DNA from: Bacteroidota bacterium
Lineage (GTDB): Bacteria; Bacteroidota; Bacteroidia; Palsa-948
Direction of reading: 5' to 3'
Length of the DNA: 40,890 bases
Assembly (NCBI GenBank): GCA_043804035.1
Contig: JAZDJJ010000169.1
Coordinates: 1-40,890 of the forward strand
Shown here: one piece after another, positions 8,089 through 38,124 of the stretch
How the letters are laid out: every line of letters starts with the position of its first letter
Position numbering within the stretch: position 1 is the first letter of the stretch
The notes under the pieces: model-generated
What the model saw: the letters and a program-made list of their open reading frames with translations, nothing else
Told to the model about the DNA's origin: nothing
Databases searched by the model: none
Made by a program: the position numbers and the translations under genes

Positions 8089-8171
8089 TGTATAGGGAAT
8101 AAAGTTTCGGGAAGAAAGATGGAAACTATGGAGCCCTCATCAGGCATTCAATACATACAAAGAAATATTTT

Positions 8172-8339
8172 CACGGAGACGTGAAAGTTTCCCACGGAGG
8201 CGTGGAAGTTTTCACTGCTACCAGTAATGTCTCTACTTGCACCAGTGGAGTTTCTACTTGCACCAGTGGAGTTTCTACTGCCATCAGTGGAGTTTCTACT
8301 TGCACCAGTGGAGTTTCTACTGCCATCAGTAGAATATCA
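8172..8339. repeat. 21-bp tandem repeat array, about 8 units
   Basis: Core units ACTTGCACCAGTGGAGTTTCT and ACTGCCATCAGTGGAGTTTCT at 8235, 8256, 8277, 8298; degenerate units at 8214 and 8319; two CACGGAGRCGTGRAAGTTTYC units at 8172 and 8193. Confidence 0.9.
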
Positions 8340-8385: not shown

Positions 8386-11300
8386 TTAGAAATCAAGTAT
8401 AACTCCGATACGAATTCTTCTTGGAATGCTGTAGAAAGAAGGATTAGCCATTTTAATAGTATACAAATCTTCAAAAGATTGAGGGCTTGCATAGCCATTG
8501 ATCTGGTTTTGGCTTTCGGGAGCACTCAGATAGCCATCATCATTAGGGTCGCCTGTATAACGATACAAGTTAAGTACATTTTTCGTATTAAGTACATTGA
8601 GCACTTGCAGATACACATTAAGATTGGATGACTTGGCTTTATCTCCTTCTCCCCCCCATTTAAGTTCTATGTTTTTGTCAATGCGCAGGTCAATACGATT
8701 TTGCCATGGCAAATTAGAACCGTTGATTTTTCCTTTCAGTGAGGTACGAGCGTTTTGACCAAATACCACCTGATCACCTCCATTGCCATTGCCTGAAGTT
8801 AAATTTTGCTGACGGGAATAAGGGAGACCGGAACCGGCACGGAACACAATATTACCACCAAGATTTTCTAAAAGTGTTTTAATTAATGAACCGGAAGGTC
8901 CTCTGTAATCCTTTCCTTTGCCAAAGCGATAGTCGGCATTCAGCACAATAGCATGACGTTGGTCAAAATCCAATGGCATGGTGGTGCGCAGGTTGGGCTG
9001 TCCTTCATTTATAATGTTATGTGCAGTACCAACAGCTGAACCTGTACCTTCAGCAAATTGCAGGGTATAAGAAGCTGTCAACTGCACATTATCCGTTCTG
9101 CGCAAATCGTAAGCCATAGTAAATCCTTTTGCTGTACCAAAGTCAATATTGCCATAAGTTATATATGTTTCAGGATAAGCACCATAAACATTTATCTCCT
9201 GTAGCATATCGCGCATCTCACGATAAAAGGCAGAAAGAGAAAGTGCAGAATTTTTCTTTTCATTCAAGGTTTGTCTGAATCCTACTTCATAATCAATGGT
9301 ACGCTCGGCTTTCAAAGAAGGTCTACTGTATATACTGCCAAGCCTATTAGGAGGACGTTGGCTCAAAACATCATAGTGAGCAAAGAAATTTGCAAGGTCG
9401 GAAATCGGGAAAGTAAAGGCAATACGTGGCATGAAAGTAGTTTGAACATCATACATTTTGAATACATTATGCACATCAGATGAATCTAATAATCTTGTTT
9501 TACTTTCGTTGGGATATTTAAGATATGGCTGAATGGTTGTGCCTTGCATCAACAAAGCAGGGTCGGAAATCTGAATGCCCTTGCTATTATACCATTGGTC
9601 TCCATCGCGATAGCCGACTACTGTGAGAGGATTTCTGGCATTATTTACATACACCACAAAGTCGGAGCCAACATTTGAAGGATGATTGAACTTGATAGAT
9701 TCTTTCACTGTGTATGCTTCATGCGACAGGTACTTATCTTTTAGTACTGGCTGGTTAGTATTAAAATTATCAACACGCAATCCGATATTGAATTTCATAT
9801 CCTTGATATCAAATTTATCCTGAAGATAACCTGCCATATAAATTGGCTGGTAAGACGGAACAATACGAGTATAATTATCATTGGCGTCTTTCTCTTTATA
9901 GTATTTTTCAAGTGAAGCAAGATTAAGAGATTGCTTGCCTGAAAGTTTTTTACCGTCATAAGAGTAGCCATAATAGGCACTACCCAATTCATCAGGACTG
10001 AACATACTTATATTAAAGATACTTGGGTCATAAGAATCAATATCAATCCATACATCATTGGCAATGTGCAATTGTTTCCTGATGGATTTATCAAATTGAC
10101 TTTGCAGAGCAGCATTGACTAATGGTTTAAAGACATAAACGGGATAAGCAGGATTGGTTATAATAGATCCTGTATAAATAGGTCCAGCGTAAAGAGAAGA
10201 ATCAGATTTGTCTAATTGAGCAATGTGTCTGTTAGCCAAACTGCGCATACTTGTCCATAATCCAATGGGATTCATTGCCCAGGATCTGTCATCTCTTTTT
10301 TCAAATTCAAACCCCGCTTGAATGGCATGGTTTTTTATATCCGCAGAAAAATTGCCTGTAATACGAATCTGCGACTGGTCTGCATTGGAGTACCCGTTAT
10401 ACTGGCGCCCTGTATTGTACCAAATTCTAAAGACATCATACGGGCGATCGCCATTAAGCATTCCATGCCCTTGTTGTATTTGGGTTGTGCTGTACGGTCT
10501 GCTAGGCGATAAAAAATCATAATATTGCTCAGTATAATTAGCACCAAGGGGATTTTGATTTCCTGCCGAAAAAGTTATAGCTGTATCTACCCATGTGCTT
10601 TGTACATAATATGTGCTGTCAATAGGAGCGATTTTATCGCTCATGAGTTTAAATCCCGGAACCCTATATTTATTAAATTTTCCCACATAACCATAGTCAA
10701 AAAAATTATCTTTATGCGTATCATCCTGAGTTGTCGCTTGGTATTTTGTATAACCAACCTGCAAAGTATAATAAGCATTATTGATAAGTGAAGTTGTTTT
10801 GTCGTCTTTTGATTTTTGTTGTTTACCAATTTTATGCATAATCTTTCCGTACATTCTCATTGTATTATATATGGTCTGAGGATTGTTACTTGGGTTAAGC
10901 AAAGCATATTCCCAAACAAAGCCATGATAATTTCCGTAATCCATAGATCCGCCAAGAGTAAAGGTTATATTATTACTTGGCTTAAAATCAATTTTACCTG
11001 CAAGTCGGGCAATGTTACTTCTTACATTTTGCCTTGCCTTGATATGTTCCAAGTCATTCATTTCCAAAAGTTCAGAATTAAGAAGATTACCTTCTCCCTT
11101 AGGATTTACATATAATGGTTTTTCTTCTAATTCTTTGAGTTTTTCATCTTTTACTTTATATACACCAATAGCAGATGGATATGGATCTTTTTCTGAAGAA
11201 ACTTCTCCTGAAAGGAAGAATCCGATTTTTGCATTTTTATTTCCAGTGCTGTCTTTCTTTATAAAAAGAGGACCGCCAACATTAAATCCGCCAAAGTTGT

Positions 11301-12042
11301 AACCATAAGCATCGGTGAGTTGGGATGACACCAATTCAACTCCACCAAAATAATCGGGGCGAATACCTCCACGTGTAGTAATATTGATGAACCCACCTGT
11401 TGCGTCACCGTATTGCGCCGGTACACCGCCTGTGATAACTGATATTTGCTCAATACTTGATTGAGGTAATCCATATGTACCACGTACTTTTTCGCCGTCA
11501 ATATAATAGTCAGTTCCCTGAGAACGAGATCCTTTGATGAACAAAGCGCCACCTTCATCTTGTTGAAAAACACCGGCAGTAGTGGAAGCAACAGAATTAA
11601 TATTTTTAGAAGGCATTGCCTGAAACTCTTCGCGGGTTACAGTTCCTCCTGTTGTTGTATTAGGGTCCTGAAGAGGTTCTTTGTAATCAGTAAGAACAAA
11701 TGTTTCAATTTCTTTAGCAGATGATTTTACTTTCATATCCTGATAAGCGGTTTTATCACCACTGATAATCATACCTCTTATAGTTAAGGTTTGATAACCC
11801 ACAGCCGCGGATTTTAAATCGTATTTGCCCGGAGTAATGGCTTTGATAGTAAAGTTGCCATCAATGTCGGCAATAGTTTTTGCAATGGCAGAGCCATTTA
11901 TTTCCAATTGTACATTGGCAAAGGAAATTGCTTCACCGTTTCCTTCATCAATAACTTTTCCTTTGAGCGCACCCAATTGTGCGAAGGATAACGTTCCTGT
12001 TGTGAACGCTACGAAAAGAATAGCAAGGATTTTTTTGAACAT
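8386..12042 (-). CDS. TonB-dependent receptor with N-terminal carboxypeptidase-regulatory-like domain
   Basis: Signal peptide; LKGKVID...FANV...DIDGNFTI; plug motifs IKGSR...YYIDG and GGVPAQYGDATGGFINITT; PRIAFTFPI; C-terminal PRRIRIGVILDF. Confidence 0.9.
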   Translation of the reverse strand: MFKKILAILFVAFTTGTLSFAQLGALKGKVIDEGNGEAISFANVQLEINGSAIAKTIADIDGNFTIKAITPGKYDLKSAAVGYQTLTIRGMIISGDKTAYQDMKVKSSAKEIETFVLTDYKEPLQDPNTTTGGTVTREEFQAMPSKNINSVASTTAGVFQQDEGGALFIKGSRSQGTDYYIDGEKVRGTYGLPQSSIEQISVITGGVPAQYGDATGGFINITTRGGIRPDYFGGVELVSSQLTDAYGYNFGGFNVGGPLFIKKDSTGNKNAKIGFFLSGEVSSEKDPYPSAIGVYKVKDEKLKELEEKPLYVNPKGEGNLLNSELLEMNDLEHIKARQNVRSNIARLAGKIDFKPSNNITFTLGGSMDYGNYHGFVWEYALLNPSNNPQTIYNTMRMYGKIMHKIGKQQKSKDDKTTSLINNAYYTLQVGYTKYQATTQDDTHKDNFFDYGYVGKFNKYRVPGFKLMSDKIAPIDSTYYVQSTWVDTAITFSAGNQNPLGANYTEQYYDFLSPSRPYSTTQIQQGHGMLNGDRPYDVFRIWYNTGRQYNGYSNADQSQIRITGNFSADIKNHAIQAGFEFEKRDDRSWAMNPIGLWTSMRSLANRHIAQLDKSDSSLYAGPIYTGSIITNPAYPVYVFKPLVNAALQSQFDKSIRKQLHIANDVWIDIDSYDPSIFNISMFSPDELGSAYYGYSYDGKKLSGKQSLNLASLEKYYKEKDANDNYTRIVPSYQPIYMAGYLQDKFDIKDMKFNIGLRVDNFNTNQPVLKDKYLSHEAYTVKESIKFNHPSNVGSDFVVYVNNARNPLTVVGYRDGDQWYNSKGIQISDPALLMQGTTIQPYLKYPNESKTRLLDSSDVHNVFKMYDVQTTFMPRIAFTFPISDLANFFAHYDVLSQRPPNRLGSIYSRPSLKAERTIDYEVGFRQTLNEKKNSALSLSAFYREMRDMLQEINVYGAYPETYITYGNIDFGTAKGFTMAYDLRRTDNVQLTASYTLQFAEGTGSAVGTAHNIINEGQPNLRTTMPLDFDQRHAIVLNADYRFGKGKDYRGPSGSLIKTLLENLGGNIVFRAGSGLPYSRQQNLTSGNGNGGDQVVFGQNARTSLKGKINGSNLPWQNRIDLRIDKNIELKWGGEGDKAKSSNLNVYLQVLNVLNTKNVLNLYRYTGDPNDDGYLSAPESQNQINGYASPQSFEDLYTIKMANPSFYSIPRRIRIGVILDF

Positions 12043-14394: not shown

Positions 14395-16401
14395 ATGAAA
14401 ACAAAGTATAGATATTCTCCGTTAATTATTTATCTATTATTTGTTTGCAATTCTTTTTCTCAACCTGTCTTTTTAAAATCCTCAACTATTTCGTGGGCTG
14501 ATTCTGTTTTTAATTCTCTCACACCCAAACAACGCATCGGGCAATTGTTTATGGTTGCTGCATATTCAAATGAAAAAACTGATACAGCGAAAATAAAAAA
14601 ACTAATTAACAACTGCGGCATCGGAGGAATAATTTTTTTTCAGGGCGGACCTTATCGTCAGGTATCGCTTACAAATTATTATCAATCACTTTCAAAAGTT
14701 CCATTGATGATTTCTATTGATGCAGAATGGGGATTAGATATGCGGATAGACAGCACAGTTCGTTTTCCACGACAAATGACACTTGGCGCTATTCCTCCCA
14801 AAGCCGATTCTCTCATTTATTTGATGGGAAAAGAAATTGCCCGTCAGTGCAAGTTGATTGGCATTCATGTAAATCTTGCTCCTGTGGTTGATATAAATAA
14901 TAATCCGATGAATCCAGTTATTGGCACACGTTCGTTTGGTGAAAATAAATATGATGTAACACGAAAATCATTGTTGTACATGAAAGGATTACAAGATGGA
15001 GGAATACTTGCTGTGGCAAAACATTTTCCCGGACATGGCGATACCGACAGTGATTCTCATAAAACTCTTCCAACTGTTTTTCATTCAAAAGAAAAAATAG
15101 ATACGTTAGATTTATATCCGTTCAAGGAACTTATTAAACAAGGAGTGGGCGGTGTAATGGTAGCACATTTATTTATTCCTGCTTACGACACAACAAGAAA
15201 TATTGCTTCCACTCTTTCTTCAAAGATTGTAAATGATTTACTAAAGAATGAATTAAAGTTTCAAGGACTGATTTTTACTGATGCACTTAACATGAAAGGT
15301 GTGAGTAAATATTTTAAGCCCGGCGAAGTGGATGTAAAATCTCTTCTTGCCGGCAATGATGTATTATTATTTTCGGAAGATGTTCCAAAAGCAGTTACCG
15401 AAATTATCAAAGCGATAGAGCGAAAAGAAATCACGCAGGAAGAAGTTGATGCTCGCTGTAAAAAAATTCTTTTAGCAAAACAATGGTGCGGGTTAAATAA
15501 ATATTCTCCGATAGATACCACTCATCTTTTTAGCAATTTAAATTCAGAACACAGCGATTATCTTAACATTCTGCTTGCCGAAAATTCTGTTACACTTTTG
15601 AAGAATAAAAATAATTTAATCCCACTCAGGAACCTTGATACATTGAAAATTGCAACTGTAACTATTAGAACAAAAGGAGTAAATAATTTTCTTCAGATGC
15701 TCAGGTTATATTCTCCAATGAAACATTTCTTTCTTCCTAAAGAGCCGACAGATATAGAAATAGATTCTTTATTAAAAAAACTAAACAATTACAATCTGAT
15801 AATCATTGATGTTTCTTCAACTAACAATGACATCAAACATGATTTTGGAATTACCAAACAATCCATCAAGTTCATTATGCAGGCAAGCAAAAGAGCAAAA
15901 GTCATAGTAGATTTTTTTGCAAATCCTTACTCGCTTACTTTGTTAGATTCTGCATGGAAAAGCACAGATGCAATTATCATGTCTTACGAAAACACAGCAT
16001 CACAAATGAGTTTGTCTTCTCAACTTATTTTTGGTGGAATTTCTTCAAAAGGAAAATTACCGATTACGGCATCACAGCAATTTCCTCTCCATTCAGGAAT
16101 AAATTCTGATACTTCTATACGTTTTAAATACACAGTTCCTGAAGAACTTGACATTGATTCAAAAAAACTTTCCATGATTGATTCTATTGTGATGAAAGGA
16201 ATTAACGAGAAAGCATTCCCGGGATGTCAGGTATTTCTTGCTAAGAATAGAAAGGTCTTTTATTACAAAACATTTGGATATCATACTTATGAAAATAAAA
16301 GCACAGTGAAGAAAGATGATATTTATGATTTGGCTTCTGTTACAAAGATTGCATCCACCACAGCAGCAGTTATGAAATTAGTGGATGAAAAAAAAAAATA
16401 A
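14395..16401 (+). CDS. GH3 beta-N-acetylglucosaminidase (NagZ-like), 5' part of a frameshifted GH3-serine hydrolase fusion
   Basis: IDAEWG, APVVDIN, RSFGE, KHFPGHGDTDSDSH, TDALNM. Ends with the start of a beta-lactamase-like domain (FPGCQV...YDLASVTK) and stops after an A11 run. Confidence 0.9.
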   Translation: MKTKYRYSPLIIYLLFVCNSFSQPVFLKSSTISWADSVFNSLTPKQRIGQLFMVAAYSNEKTDTAKIKKLINNCGIGGIIFFQGGPYRQVSLTNYYQSLSKVPLMISIDAEWGLDMRIDSTVRFPRQMTLGAIPPKADSLIYLMGKEIARQCKLIGIHVNLAPVVDINNNPMNPVIGTRSFGENKYDVTRKSLLYMKGLQDGGILAVAKHFPGHGDTDSDSHKTLPTVFHSKEKIDTLDLYPFKELIKQGVGGVMVAHLFIPAYDTTRNIASTLSSKIVNDLLKNELKFQGLIFTDALNMKGVSKYFKPGEVDVKSLLAGNDVLLFSEDVPKAVTEIIKAIERKEITQEEVDARCKKILLAKQWCGLNKYSPIDTTHLFSNLNSEHSDYLNILLAENSVTLLKNKNNLIPLRNLDTLKIATVTIRTKGVNNFLQMLRLYSPMKHFFLPKEPTDIEIDSLLKKLNNYNLIIIDVSSTNNDIKHDFGITKQSIKFIMQASKRAKVIVDFFANPYSLTLLDSAWKSTDAIIMSYENTASQMSLSSQLIFGGISSKGKLPITASQQFPLHSGINSDTSIRFKYTVPEELDIDSKKLSMIDSIVMKGINEKAFPGCQVFLAKNRKVFYYKTFGYHTYENKSTVKKDDIYDLASVTKIASTTAAVMKLVDEKKK

Positions 16402-17324
16402 ATGTTGATGATTATCTCTGCTATCATCTGCCCGAATTAGAAGGAACTAATAAGATGAACATCAATATCAGAGAGATGATGACGCATCAGGCAGGACTGA
16501 AAGATTGGATTCCGTTTTATCTGCACACAATGAGTAAAGGAGAATATAAACCGGGTATTTATAGCAAAGTACAAAATGATAGTTTTCCCTATCGTGTAGC
16601 AGAAAAATTTTACATTCATCATAGTTATCCTGATACCATCTTCAAAAAAATTTATGATTCTCCATTAAGTGAAAAACATGAGTATAAATACAGCGACTTT
16701 GGATTTTATTTTATGCATAAAATTGTTGAACGCTCTTCGGGAGTAATGTTGAATGAATTTGTTCAAAAGAATTTTTACTCTCCTCTTGGTTTGTCAACTA
16801 TGTGCTACCGTCCTCGCGAACGGTTTGACATAAAAAGAATTGTTCCTACTGAATATGATGTTGGGTTCAGAAAACAATTAATACGGGGCGATGTTCATGA
16901 TCCTGGCGCTGCTATGCTTGGAGGAGTGGCAGGGCATGCAGGATTATTTTCTGATGCAAACGACCTTGCTGTGATGATGCAAATGTTTTTGCAAAAAGGT
17001 GAATATGGAGGCAAAAGATATCTGGACTCTGCTACCGTTAATGAATTTACTAAATGTCAGTTTTGTGCAGATAACCGCAGGGCTCTTGGCTTTGATAAAC
17101 CCGAAACTAATCCGCAAAAAGATAGCCCCGTCTGCAATTGTGTTTCGGAGCGAAGTTTTGGTCATCAGGGTTTCACGGGAACAATCACTTGGGTTGATCC
17201 TGAAAAAGAATTGGTTTATGTTTTTCTTTCCAACCGCGTTTATCCCGATATAGAAAATAATAAAATAAATAAAATGGGTATTCGCAATGCAATTTTGAGA
17301 GTGGTTTATAAAGCGATAAAGTAA
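16398..17324 (+). pseudogene. Serine hydrolase/beta-lactamase-like domain, 3' part of the frameshifted fusion
   Basis: Frame is open from 16398 (INVDDYLCYHLPEL...), upstream of the track ATG at 16455. Contains THQAGL, YSDFG, VHDPGA, GHAGLFS, FGHQGFTGT, LSNRV but lacks the SxxK motif, which lies in the upstream ORF. Confidence 0.85.
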
Positions 17325-17337
17325 CTGATGTTACGTA

Positions 17338-17568
17338 AAAATTCTTCCTGCTTTCCCTAAAATTCTTCCTGCTTTCCCTAAAATTCTTCCTGCTTTCTCT
17401 AAAATTCTTCCTGCTTTCCCTAAAATTCTTCCTACTTTCCCTAAAATTCTTCCTACTTTTTTCAAAATTCTTCCTACTTTCCCCAAAATTCTTCCTACTT
17501 TCCCTAAAATTCTTCCTACTTTATCTAAAATTCTTCCTACTTTCCCTAAAATTCTTCCTACTTTATCT
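17338..17568. repeat. 21-bp tandem repeat array, 11 units
   Basis: AAAATTCTTCCT(G/A)CTTT(CCCT/CTCT/TTTC/CCCC/ATCT) x11, exact period 21. The last unit contains the stop codon of the adjacent - strand gene. Confidence 0.97.
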
Positions 17569-18504
17569 ATTGATATCCACTGAATAACTGCCTTTTGTAT
17601 CAGTATTAGTGTTAATTACTATAAAAATGCTGAATTTCTTTTGAATAATAAACTCTTTGTTCGGCGCAATTGACTTTTTTTCGCCATCACCTTTTTTGCC
17701 CGCTCGTAATTCAAGTATCGTTATGCCTGTATTGATGAAAAGTCCTCCTATCAATGCTCCTCTTACTGTTTTTTGCTGACTTGGATTTATCGTAATTGTT
17801 CTCCTCACCGAACCTCTTGGCGAATCATCAACAGTAATTCCGTATTGCCCTAATTTTTTCGGGTTGTTGCTAAAATGTTTGATTAAAAACTGGCAGATTG
17901 CTCTCGTATTTTTTATGGGCTGCTCCATTAAATTGTCGCTGTTTTTTTGTTCTTCTTCCATTCTTTTATTTTCTTTGGAAAAATCTGTGTTTATTTTATT
18001 GGCTTGAACGACATCTTTGTTTAATGTTTCCAAATCAATATTATTTTCTATCAAAAAATTATACAGCGGACTATCTTTTCCTAAAAACGATTTGTGTTTG
18101 TTGTAAAAAATAACAAATAATTTAAAAAGCGAATCAAAGTTGGTGGGATAAACAATACGGTTTTTGTTATCTATTGTCAATCCCCAGTCGCCAAGTTTGC
18201 GCACATTGTTTTTGTAAAACGCTTTGAGAAACTGTGCTCCTTTTTTGAAAATAAAAATTGCGGGTTTAAAAAAATTGTTGCGGTCTTTTCGCAATTCTTC
18301 AGCTTTGTCGCCAGCGATTTTGCGTTTGTCGTGGCGGTCAACGGATTCTAATAAAAATTTGTTATCGGCTGCTAAATTAATTTTTCCTTCGTTAAGAAAA
18401 ATCATTAGTACCGAATTGGTGCCATCGGCATCATGTTTTGTTTTAATGCCGTCATGCAGTTTTTTCCAACCCGCTGCTGTACCGGGAGAAATGATTCGTG
18501 CCAT
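17563..18504 (-). CDS. Uncharacterised protein (313 aa): two tandem copies of a ~112-aa helical domain plus a beta-rich C-terminal domain
   Basis: ATG at 18504 (MARIISP). Repeat 1 RIISP..KL..KH..G.NSVL..FL...QFL..FYKNNVRKLGDWGLTID aligns with repeat 2 RIVYP..KL..KH..GKDSPL..FL...QFL..HFSNNPKKLGQYGITVD. The track start (TTG, 18570) only adds repeat-encoded residues. Confidence 0.85.
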   Translation of the reverse strand: MARIISPGTAAGWKKLHDGIKTKHDADGTNSVLMIFLNEGKINLAADNKFLLESVDRHDKRKIAGDKAEELRKDRNNFFKPAIFIFKKGAQFLKAFYKNNVRKLGDWGLTIDNKNRIVYPTNFDSLFKLFVIFYNKHKSFLGKDSPLYNFLIENNIDLETLNKDVVQANKINTDFSKENKRMEEEQKNSDNLMEQPIKNTRAICQFLIKHFSNNPKKLGQYGITVDDSPRGSVRRTITINPSQQKTVRGALIGGLFINTGITILELRAGKKGDGEKKSIAPNKEFIIQKKFSIFIVINTNTDTKGSYSVDINR

Positions 18505-18517
18505 ATAAATTAAATTT

Positions 18518-18578
18518 AAAATTTTTACAAACTTACATAAAATTTTTACAAACTTACATAAAATTTTCAATCACACAT
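18518..18578. repeat. 21-bp tandem repeat, 2 perfect units plus 1 degenerate unit
   Basis: AAAATTTTTACAAACTTACAT at 18518 and 18539; AAAATTTTCAATCACACAT at 18560. Confidence 0.85.
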
Positions 18579-18617
18579 AAAATAGGATCAAAATCAAAAA
18601 GGATTTTTAGAAGAAAT

Positions 18618-23460: not shown

Positions 23461-23698
23461 TCATTAGTTCGTCATGGCGGGCTTGACCCTCCATCATTAG
23501 TTCGTCATGGCGGACTTGACCCTCCATCATTAGTTCGTCATGGCGGGCTTTGACCCTCCATCATTAGTTCGTCATGGCGGGCTTTGACCCTCCATCATTA
23601 GTTCGTCATGGCGGGCTTTGACCCGCCATCATTAGTTCGTCATGGCGGGCTTTGACCCGCCATCATTAGTTCGTCATGGCGGGCTTTGACCCGCCATC
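23461..23698. repeat. Tandem array of 7 REP-like hairpin units (33-34 bp), no spacers
   Basis: TCATTAGTTCGTCATGGCGGGCT(T)TGACCC(T/G)CCA x7, starting at 23461, 23494, 23527, 23561, 23595, 23629, 23663. Confidence 0.95.
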
Positions 23699-37940: not shown

Positions 37941-38068
37941 ACAGTGAACAGTGAACAGTGAACAGTGAAAAGTGAACAGTGAAAAGTGAACAGTGAACAA
38001 GTGAACAGTGAACAGTGAAAAGTGAACAGTGAACAAGTGAACAGTGAACAGTGAAAAGTGAACAGTGA
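37941..38068. repeat. Heptamer tandem array, 18 units
   Basis: A(C/A)AGTGA x16 plus two 8-nt ACAAGTGA units. Confidence 0.95.
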
Positions 38069-38124
38069 AATTGTGGCAACTAAGTTTTCCATTATAAAAA
38101 AGGATAGCGATTTTTAGATTATCT

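Follow-up and report, generated by a model that had tools for sequence, protein, structure and literature searches.

Tandem-repeat systems and the P0002 locus

[quoted passage not shown] According to the available part of that paper, the fixed size is unexplained in many bacteria, and a polymerising protein or small RNAs were suggested; another report, likewise available in part, describes transcription of constant-size repeats in Bacillus coagulans (PMC8625621). Here we examined a gene and an array of 21-bp units in a 40,890-nt stretch of DNA from a Bacteroidota bacterium (contig JAZDJJ010000169.1, assembly GCA_043804035.1; hereafter, the window). The gene encodes a 313-aa protein, P0002, and the gene and the array directly downstream of it form one co-inherited, self-contained two-part module. 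The two parts are located in the window as follows.

17338..17564, minus strand: downstream non-coding tandem array (Tandem Repeats Finder (TRF), in-register units, composition, reading frames, RNA fold)
17563..18504, minus strand: gene for the 313-aa P0002 (open reading frame (ORF), translation, family alignment, AlphaFold2, fold searches)

Judged by unit size and by the variety of unit sequences, the arrays fall into this already published class of 20-21-nt repeats with constant size. They share with it the unit of 21 bp or a multiple (in the window, and 21, 42 or 63 bp in 17/17 assessable homologous loci) and the presence of many non-coding array families of the same size and different sequence within one genome. 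They differ in that the array is here tied to one protein family, in 21/21 cases, whereas the passages of PMC8161180 consulted mention no tie to particular genes or protein families, and its text does not contain the terms 'intergenic', 'flanking' or 'adjacent gene'. We found no description of gene linkage of constant-size repeats in the literature in its accessible part, the J Bacteriol 2020 paper and supplements excepted. The co-inherited protein family is a concrete candidate partner for such repeats, by which a descriptive puzzle becomes testable, and for annotation the rule follows that arrays of this type are neither CRISPR-like nor coding.

Tandem arrays beside a protein gene are also a feature of partition loci. 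The partition centromeres of F (sopC/SopB), R1 (parC/ParR) and pSK41 (parC/ParR) are composed of units of about 11-43 bp beside the gene for the protein that coats them, and the binding is phased and cooperative. The locus examined here resembles them in the array adjoining a protein gene, but it has no ParA, ParM or TubZ nucleoside triphosphatase gene and no conserved neighbour, and its context is chromosomal and housekeeping; moreover, no ribbon-helix-helix or helix-turn-helix family was detected for P0002, and the units are not conserved between close homologues. It differs from iteron origins in having no adjacent Rep gene: scans of P0002 and of 8 proteins encoded nearby gave no Rep initiator family. 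In type III toxin-antitoxin systems (ToxIN, CptIN, TenpIN), repeats of about 36-45 nt, which fold (pseudoknot), precede the toxin gene and are separated from it by a terminator. The combination of a stand-alone protein gene with a tandem nucleotide repeat is common to both, but here the repeats are downstream, of 21 nt and unstructured, and P0002 has no likeness to defence families.

Two kinds of repeats described in other studies are also relevant. The BrickBuilt minisatellite of Porphyromonas gingivalis, one of the miniature inverted-repeat transposable elements, has one conserved 23-nt unit, leader and tail ends with inverted repeats, and an association with promoter activity (PMC4596501). 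Like the arrays examined here, it is a dispersed intergenic tandem repeat of about 21-23 nt in a Bacteroidota genome; however, it is not tied to a protein family, whereas our units differ from locus to locus and are gene-tied. Long simple-sequence repeats of heptanucleotides, TAACTGA and others, are a known background (PMC4679880). The genome of the window (G000) and the loci of the homologues are rich in period-7/14 arrays, but the gene-linked 21-nt units are not built of heptamers.

Co-inheritance of the P0002 gene and its downstream array

In the window, TRF reported for positions 17338-17564 a period of 21 with 10.8 copies, 92% matches and a score of 370. The array begins at the stop codon of the gene, the TAA of which (17563-17565) falls within the last array unit. 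An initial annotation of this DNA, made from the letters alone, had described a 313-aa gene with an 11-unit array and the stop inside the nearest unit, and TRF, ORF and sequence all agree with it. When the 11 units were stacked in register, one site was polarised (on the plus strand, G in 4 units and then A in 7) and the rest of the variation was confined to one 4-nt window, which reads AGGG, AGAT, GGGG, GAAA or AGAG on the sense strand; this pattern had been noticed in the annotation as well. The gene's own frame hits a further TAA in the third array unit, and stops are present in all three sense frames in 9/19 arrays of the family (the array bounds include edges). A coding repeat or read-through was rejected on these two grounds. 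From two groundwater-metagenome runs, short pieces alone were obtained, and none of them crosses the array.

To follow the linkage beyond the window, 19 loci with homologues were fetched, 4 from species-representative genomes and 15 from metagenomes, and TRF was run on every one; only one peptide pattern was used for fetching, thus these are minimum counts. Wherever the downstream flank of a public locus was 60 nt or longer, it contained a period-21 (or 42/63) array (17/17), the loci not assessable downstream being L029 (49 nt of flank) and L032 (1 nt). The arrays lie on the same strand and begin 3-110 nt past the matched gene, and the 42 or 63 super-period is often the stronger one. An in-genome paralog with 35% identity (C98:7801-8739) also has an array, of 14.5 units that differ from those of the window, at a distance of 27 nt downstream. 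In two genomes of the same order the array is again directly downstream, one copy of the gene being truncated and the other matched in two pieces. The 17 public loci, the window gene, the C98 paralog and the two related genomes give 21/21 assessable members linked to an array, in comparison to a background of 30/1775 ORF-genes (1.7%) in this genome with a strong period-21/42/63 array within 150 nt downstream. The annotation had named period-21 arrays of variable sequence beside homologues as a sign of a system, and downstream of the genes this is what we observed. Identity of the homologous proteins to the queries drops to 31-37%.

The comparison of 21 loci revealed no conserved neighbour gene and no common partner, and for this reason we regard the module as self-contained, as had been proposed for the cassette in the window. 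The family is sporadic: it is present in 3/10 genomes of the order and absent, at E<=1e-20, from 400 other sampled genomes of the phylum, and its hosts include Flavobacteriales, Segetibacter and Bacteroidia. With regard to phage origin, tblastn against 50,697 phage records gave nothing and an IMG/VR scan gave no relative. Insertion borders were not obtained by synteny, the neighbours of the HD-domain gene beside P0002 being different in 8 related genomes.

The minus-strand ORF 17563..18570 opens at TTG. Conservation places the start at the ATG at 18504, for a protein of 313 aa, and all homologues in the family alignment start with MAR at this position. Residues 1-112 and 113-226 are 30% identical over 111 aa (E 3e-11), indicating an internal duplication. 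The AlphaFold2 model (predicted local distance difference test 91.8, predicted template modelling score 0.60) consists of two helical modules, each around a 53-residue helix, and an 80-residue beta domain (residues 232-312), so that the duplicated helical domain of about 112 aa and the beta tail of the annotation were both recovered. In fold searches the beta domain resembled small jelly-roll/cupin folds (PirA, Z 9.9; cupins, Z ~8), and against CENP-C/Mif2 cupin dimerisation domains it scored Z 8.2-8.5; the fold matches in BFVD were restricted to this small domain. The helical part matched generic helical bundles alone, at Z ~8, a level flagged as uninformative. No ribbon-helix-helix or helix-turn-helix Pfam family was found for P0002, and the fold matches listed comprise the jelly-roll tail and the generic bundles. 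At the junction of the helical and beta parts, D226, S228 and P229 are invariant in the family alignment and R230 is nearly so. Across 133 full-length members the median isoelectric point is 9.0; the beta domain is consistently basic (median net charge +6) and the helical halves are near neutral.

Scans of P0002 against Pfam, NCBIfam, PHROG and PADLOC gave no family at threshold, in agreement with the initial annotation, and a PDB profile search with the family gave a best E of 1.7, hence no relative of solved structure at the sequence level. When 1.84 billion cluster representatives were searched exhaustively with HMMER, 230 relatives had E<=1e-3, and 74 of them reached E<=1e-30; relatives are nearly all 311-316 aa long. 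A word-indexed search returned 17 proteins including the query, all named 'hypothetical protein' and all from Bacteroidota metagenome-assembled genomes. In the ESM Atlas nothing but unnamed Bacteroidota clusters was found, likewise for the hel family described below, and among 2478 candidates there were no fused or longer forms, which is weak evidence. As far as these searches reach, P0002 belongs to no known family.

The RNA of the window array had no extra structure in comparison to its shuffles (minimum free energy z +1.07), and the Rfam scan gave no family at threshold, the single match having 16.9 bits against a gathering score of 86 (E 0.42). A structured RNA or known RNA family was rejected on these values. 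The analogy to type III antitoxin arrays, raised in the initial annotation, likewise failed on the downstream position of the array, its 21-nt units and its unstructured RNA. A defence cassette, of type III toxin-antitoxin or another kind, with the protein held in check by the repeat RNA, would be consistent with a stand-alone gene, a tandem repeat and a sporadic distribution. However, the array is downstream in 21/21 cases, there is no PADLOC or Pfam match, no nuclease or ToxN/AbiQ-type fold was present among the fold matches listed for P0002, and there was no match in the phage collections. Such a cassette is highly improbable in our view.

Turnover of the arrays and their possible role

The arrays of the family span from 2.6 units, where a contig end cuts the array, to 15 units. 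They start -7 to +2 nt from the end of the stop codon in 11/19 loci, whereas the remaining 8 start 18-100 nt past it. Many arrays combine a conserved core with a remainder that varies more, and the youngest-looking ones (window, C98) are nearly uniform. The units diverge rapidly: their likeness is 18/21 at 88% protein identity, yet 11/21 at 84%, and over 120 non-independent pairs the Spearman coefficient is 0.34. The sole recurrent motif is the A-run, with AAAA in most units of 17/20 arrays and AAAAA in 11/20.

Tentatively, we propose that the array most likely acts as a phased, curved double-stranded DNA platform for cooperative assembly of the module's protein. With 21 bp equal to two helical turns, any feature of the unit would recur on the same face of the helix, and with one A-run per unit the bends would add in phase and make the array intrinsically curved. 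The protein could then assemble cooperatively and with little sequence specificity, every two helical turns accommodating one protomer or dimer. The likeliest binder would be the module's own product, acting via the basic beta domain together with the invariant D-x-SPR linker. Such a nucleoprotein would be similar to a centromere or iteron array, yet changes in the sequence would be tolerated. Because the array may lie within the transcription unit, its sense strand would avoid C-rich, Rho-attracting RNA, which would in turn produce a purine bias. We infer an action at the DNA level, with the encoded protein as binder, because the period persists across families and hosts while the unit sequence changes. 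The basic beta domain, the predicted curvature, the lack of a partner gene and the location of one array upstream of a promoter (locus L063, below) point in the same direction, as do the 21/21 linkage, the dominance of period 21 genome-wide, the larger number of strong arrays in genomes with the array-linked families and the polymerising protein suggested for constant-size repeats (PMC8161180).

Several observations weigh against such a platform. No DNA-binding fold or family was found for P0002 by family scans, fold search and PDB profile, and 30% of the 133 full-length members are acidic overall. The unrelated unit cores beside 84%-identical proteins argue against sequence-specific recognition by the encoded protein. 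In a wedge model, the ratio of end-to-end distance to contour length put 17/18 idealised arrays under the 1st percentile of genomic windows, and 11/18 real units exceeded about 89% or more of their shuffled versions in curvature; this is a weak test of curvature, as the wedge parameters were provisional, any 21-bp period curves and shuffling breaks the A-runs. Two arrays without a family gene (C24:5620-5867 and C79:25361-25517) have the same units as family-linked ones, and the arrays found genome-wide, together with the abundant heptamer arrays, allow a purely mutational origin. Furthermore, the array is probably transcribed, since a hairpin with a T-run follows it in 7 loci, and the sense strand is purine-rich in 19/19 arrays (0.63-0.86, with A 0.44-0.60 and C 0.02-0.15). 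This strand bias and the position between stop codon and terminator would be explained more directly by a role of the array as RNA.

As the main alternative, the array could be a 3' untranslated region. Its periodic RNA, unstructured, rich in A/G and poor in C, would be a multivalent landing pad for the encoded protein (autoregulation or assembly on its own message) or for a host RNA-binding factor, or might simply stabilise the message. We consider this possible, though on balance doubtful. It agrees with the array starts next to the stop codon in 11/19 loci and with the hairpin and T-run, the first of which lies past the array in 7 loci and in the interval from stop codon to array in 2 (L017; L031 weakly); a crude scan gave none in the remaining loci. 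The fold z of +1.07 is as expected of a single-stranded binding platform, and the two gene-less arrays are also in sense orientation relative to their flanking genes. In the window, the purine fraction on the sense strand of the gene is 0.75; however, a terminator scan gave no terminator-like site 3' of the array. Moreover, an RNA role gives no reason for the exact 21-nt period, which the hel and fn3 families described below have without purine bias, the fn3 arrays being mostly upstream of the gene, and the bias of the strand may have been inherited, or may have arisen because Rho-dependent termination is avoided.

Alternatively, the arrays may have no function tied to the protein and may be constant-size minisatellites that arise by lineage-specific slippage or recombination, hitch-hike in an ancestral 3' region and are renewed by concerted evolution. 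The fast turnover of unit sequence is in line with this, and so are the polarised variants and the 42/63 higher-order periods, typical of unequal exchange. The G000 draft (2.34 Mb) contains 542 tandem arrays, among them 101 of period 7 and 46 of period 14 (75 have period 21, 9 period 20 and 7 period 22), arrays with the same units are found beside unrelated genes, and many contigs break at arrays. On the other hand, 21/21 against 1.7% would be hard to keep across distant hosts without selection, neutral arrays should often vanish before protein identity falls to 31-37%, and two further families show the same fidelity. For these reasons, we regard a purely mutational origin as unlikely.

Other array-linked families and the arrays of the genome

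In G000 there are 59 strong period-21/42/63 arrays, with diverse units and nearly all intergenic. Single-domain relatives of the helical half of P0002 are beside arrays in 2/2 cases in this genome. Two further families were found at such arrays, with the following positions.

C137:22549-23386, C71:9008-9668, C28:16480-17113 and C142:1-744: hel family in G000 (also loci L043-L062)
C195:13043-14217, C145:61-904 and C30:4-924: fn3 family in G000 (also loci L063-L092)

The hel family (~160 aa, helical, no Pfam match) has 20 members in 7/10 genomes of the order, and 15/20 have a period-21-class array within 400 nt downstream and 0 upstream. The fn3 family (~207 aa, helical with FN3) is multi-copy, with 55 matches in 6/10 genomes, 20 of them in G003; among 28 loci the array is upstream in 17, downstream in 5 and lacking in 6. 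At fn3 locus L063 a TAnnTTTG box stands between array and gene, which places the array upstream of the promoter. As neither hel nor fn3 arrays are purine-rich, the period is the sole feature common to all array-linked families. Common ancestry of the three families was not demonstrated by hhalign (E 0.83, E 0.0079 with probability 5%, and E 0.17). With these, three or more protein families that await characterisation are flagged for study.

Strong arrays were compared in the whole of G000 and in parts of four related genomes. Genomes with these families had 59 in 2.34 Mb (G000), 7 in 0.32 Mb (G003) and 4 in 0.24 Mb (G005), and genomes without them 1 in 0.40 Mb (G008) and 1 in 0.16 Mb (G007). 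It may be, although we are doubtful of so wide a claim, that unrelated small non-enzymatic Bacteroidota families (P0002, hel, fn3) are the factors that fix the 20-21-nt repeat size, polymerising with a two-helical-turn footprint on curved DNA; they would then be undescribed, sequence-tolerant and mutually orthogonal chromosomal nucleoprotein modules.

A different explanation is that one shared host nucleoid or silencing protein polymerises on the 21-bp-phased curved arrays, which would be cis-regulators (silencers or enhancers) of accessory small-protein genes. This would fit at least three sequence-unrelated families with such arrays downstream or upstream and the occurrence of arrays beside unrelated genes, and the differing array sequences would suit a factor that reads shape. 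We consider it decidedly unlikely, since the module is sporadic (3/10 genomes of the order, 0/400 others) and present also in distant hosts, which favours a self-contained unit, and no candidate protein was identified.

Of the gene-less arrays, the one on C24 abuts the stop of a 124-aa truncated ORF. This ORF is presumably RhuM-like, and the VWA-domain-like neighbours presumably represent a Bat-type operon. Many contigs of G000 begin or end inside 21-bp arrays (C164:1-333, C33:1-289, C69:1-262, C142:1-229), and some contig ends share a unit, for example C193:16885-17000 with C21:1-116. Since arrays break the assembly in this way, their counts are lower bounds.

The upstream repeat and the neighbourhood of the module

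The initial annotation had described the P0002 gene as bracketed by two related arrays, with about 3 upstream units ending 13 bp before the ATG. The upstream side of the gene contains the following features.

18505..18516, minus strand: 12-nt A/T-rich stretch from the upstream repeat to the ATG (sequence)
18517..18583, minus strand: upstream 21-bp repeat, a local duplication (TRF)
18547..18616, minus strand: one copy of a dispersed promoter-bearing element of ~70 nt (local BLAST, strict pattern count)

TRF gave 2.4 copies at 100% for positions 18517-18567 and 3.3 copies at 89% for the extended repeat 18517-18583, which is compatible with about 3 units, and the distance to the ATG is 12 nt and not 13. 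Two TAAGTTTG boxes are present in the repeat (18528-18535 and 18549-18556), and TAnnTTTG boxes are located at -31 and -52 relative to the P0002 ATG. We take TAnnTTTG to be the Bacteroidetes -7 promoter box; it is the reverse complement of the end of the dispersed element. The copy of this element fills the spacer as far as the stop of the HD-domain gene (18618). Its first 37 nt had 194 local BLAST matches in the genome, and the strict pattern for its end, CAAAnnTACATAAAATT, had 110 copies; in 85/110 cases an ORF that opens with ATG and encodes 60 aa or more begins within 200 nt on the promoter side (median 36 nt), in comparison to 16 on the other side. The element, present at ~110-190 places in G000, is ~90-97% conserved over 30-37 nt, far beyond the needs of a promoter, and is often joined to other repeat modules.

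Of the homologous loci, 17 have an upstream flank of 130 nt or more, and among these a clear upstream period-21-class array was found in L016 alone (period 63); L031 and L032 have a weak 2.1-copy heptamer-derived row. The upstream repeat of the window is a local duplication of the promoter end of the dispersed element and not a property of the module. Because it derives from this element and is rare in homologues, the described bracketing is retained for the downstream array (21/21) and dropped for the upstream one (clear in 1/17). The match of 14/21 positions between upstream and downstream units was reproduced and no rotation improves it. At least 14/21 is reached by chance in 1.1% of shuffled units and 0.6% of random genomic 21-mers, and by 0/99 of the other period-21 units of this genome. 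Support for a relationship of the two units is mild and uncorrected, so that the similarity appears unusual and not compelling. Arrays of period 7/14 are located within ~330 nt upstream of the gene in 8/17 homologous loci (L031 and L032 being one upstream sequence).

The neighbours of the module are housekeeping genes, as had been annotated: a glycosyl hydrolase 3 with a beta-lactamase-type domain, an HD-domain protein, Lon, an M23 peptidase and an EPSP-synthase-family enzyme. At 14395-17324, the glycosyl-hydrolase-3 ORF ends with beta-lactamase profile positions 5-72 and the next ORF (16455-17324) has positions 94-313; this region looks like a single gene that a stop or a frameshift has interrupted or that was misassembled. 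Period-21/42 arrays with units unrelated to the P0002-linked ones are present at 8162-8215 and 8220-8330, 64 nt downstream of a TonB-dependent-receptor-like gene (8386-12042, minus strand). A 34-bp array of 7.1 copies lies at 23461-23698, and its unit contains a GGCGGG...CCCGCC-type hairpin. The 34-35-bp unit family is also arrayed on many contigs (for example C101:4483-5142, 18.9 copies), and single copies of the unit often come after the dispersed promoter element. Finally, a heptamer array of ACAGTGA x 18 with a 36-bp super-period occupies positions 37941-38069.

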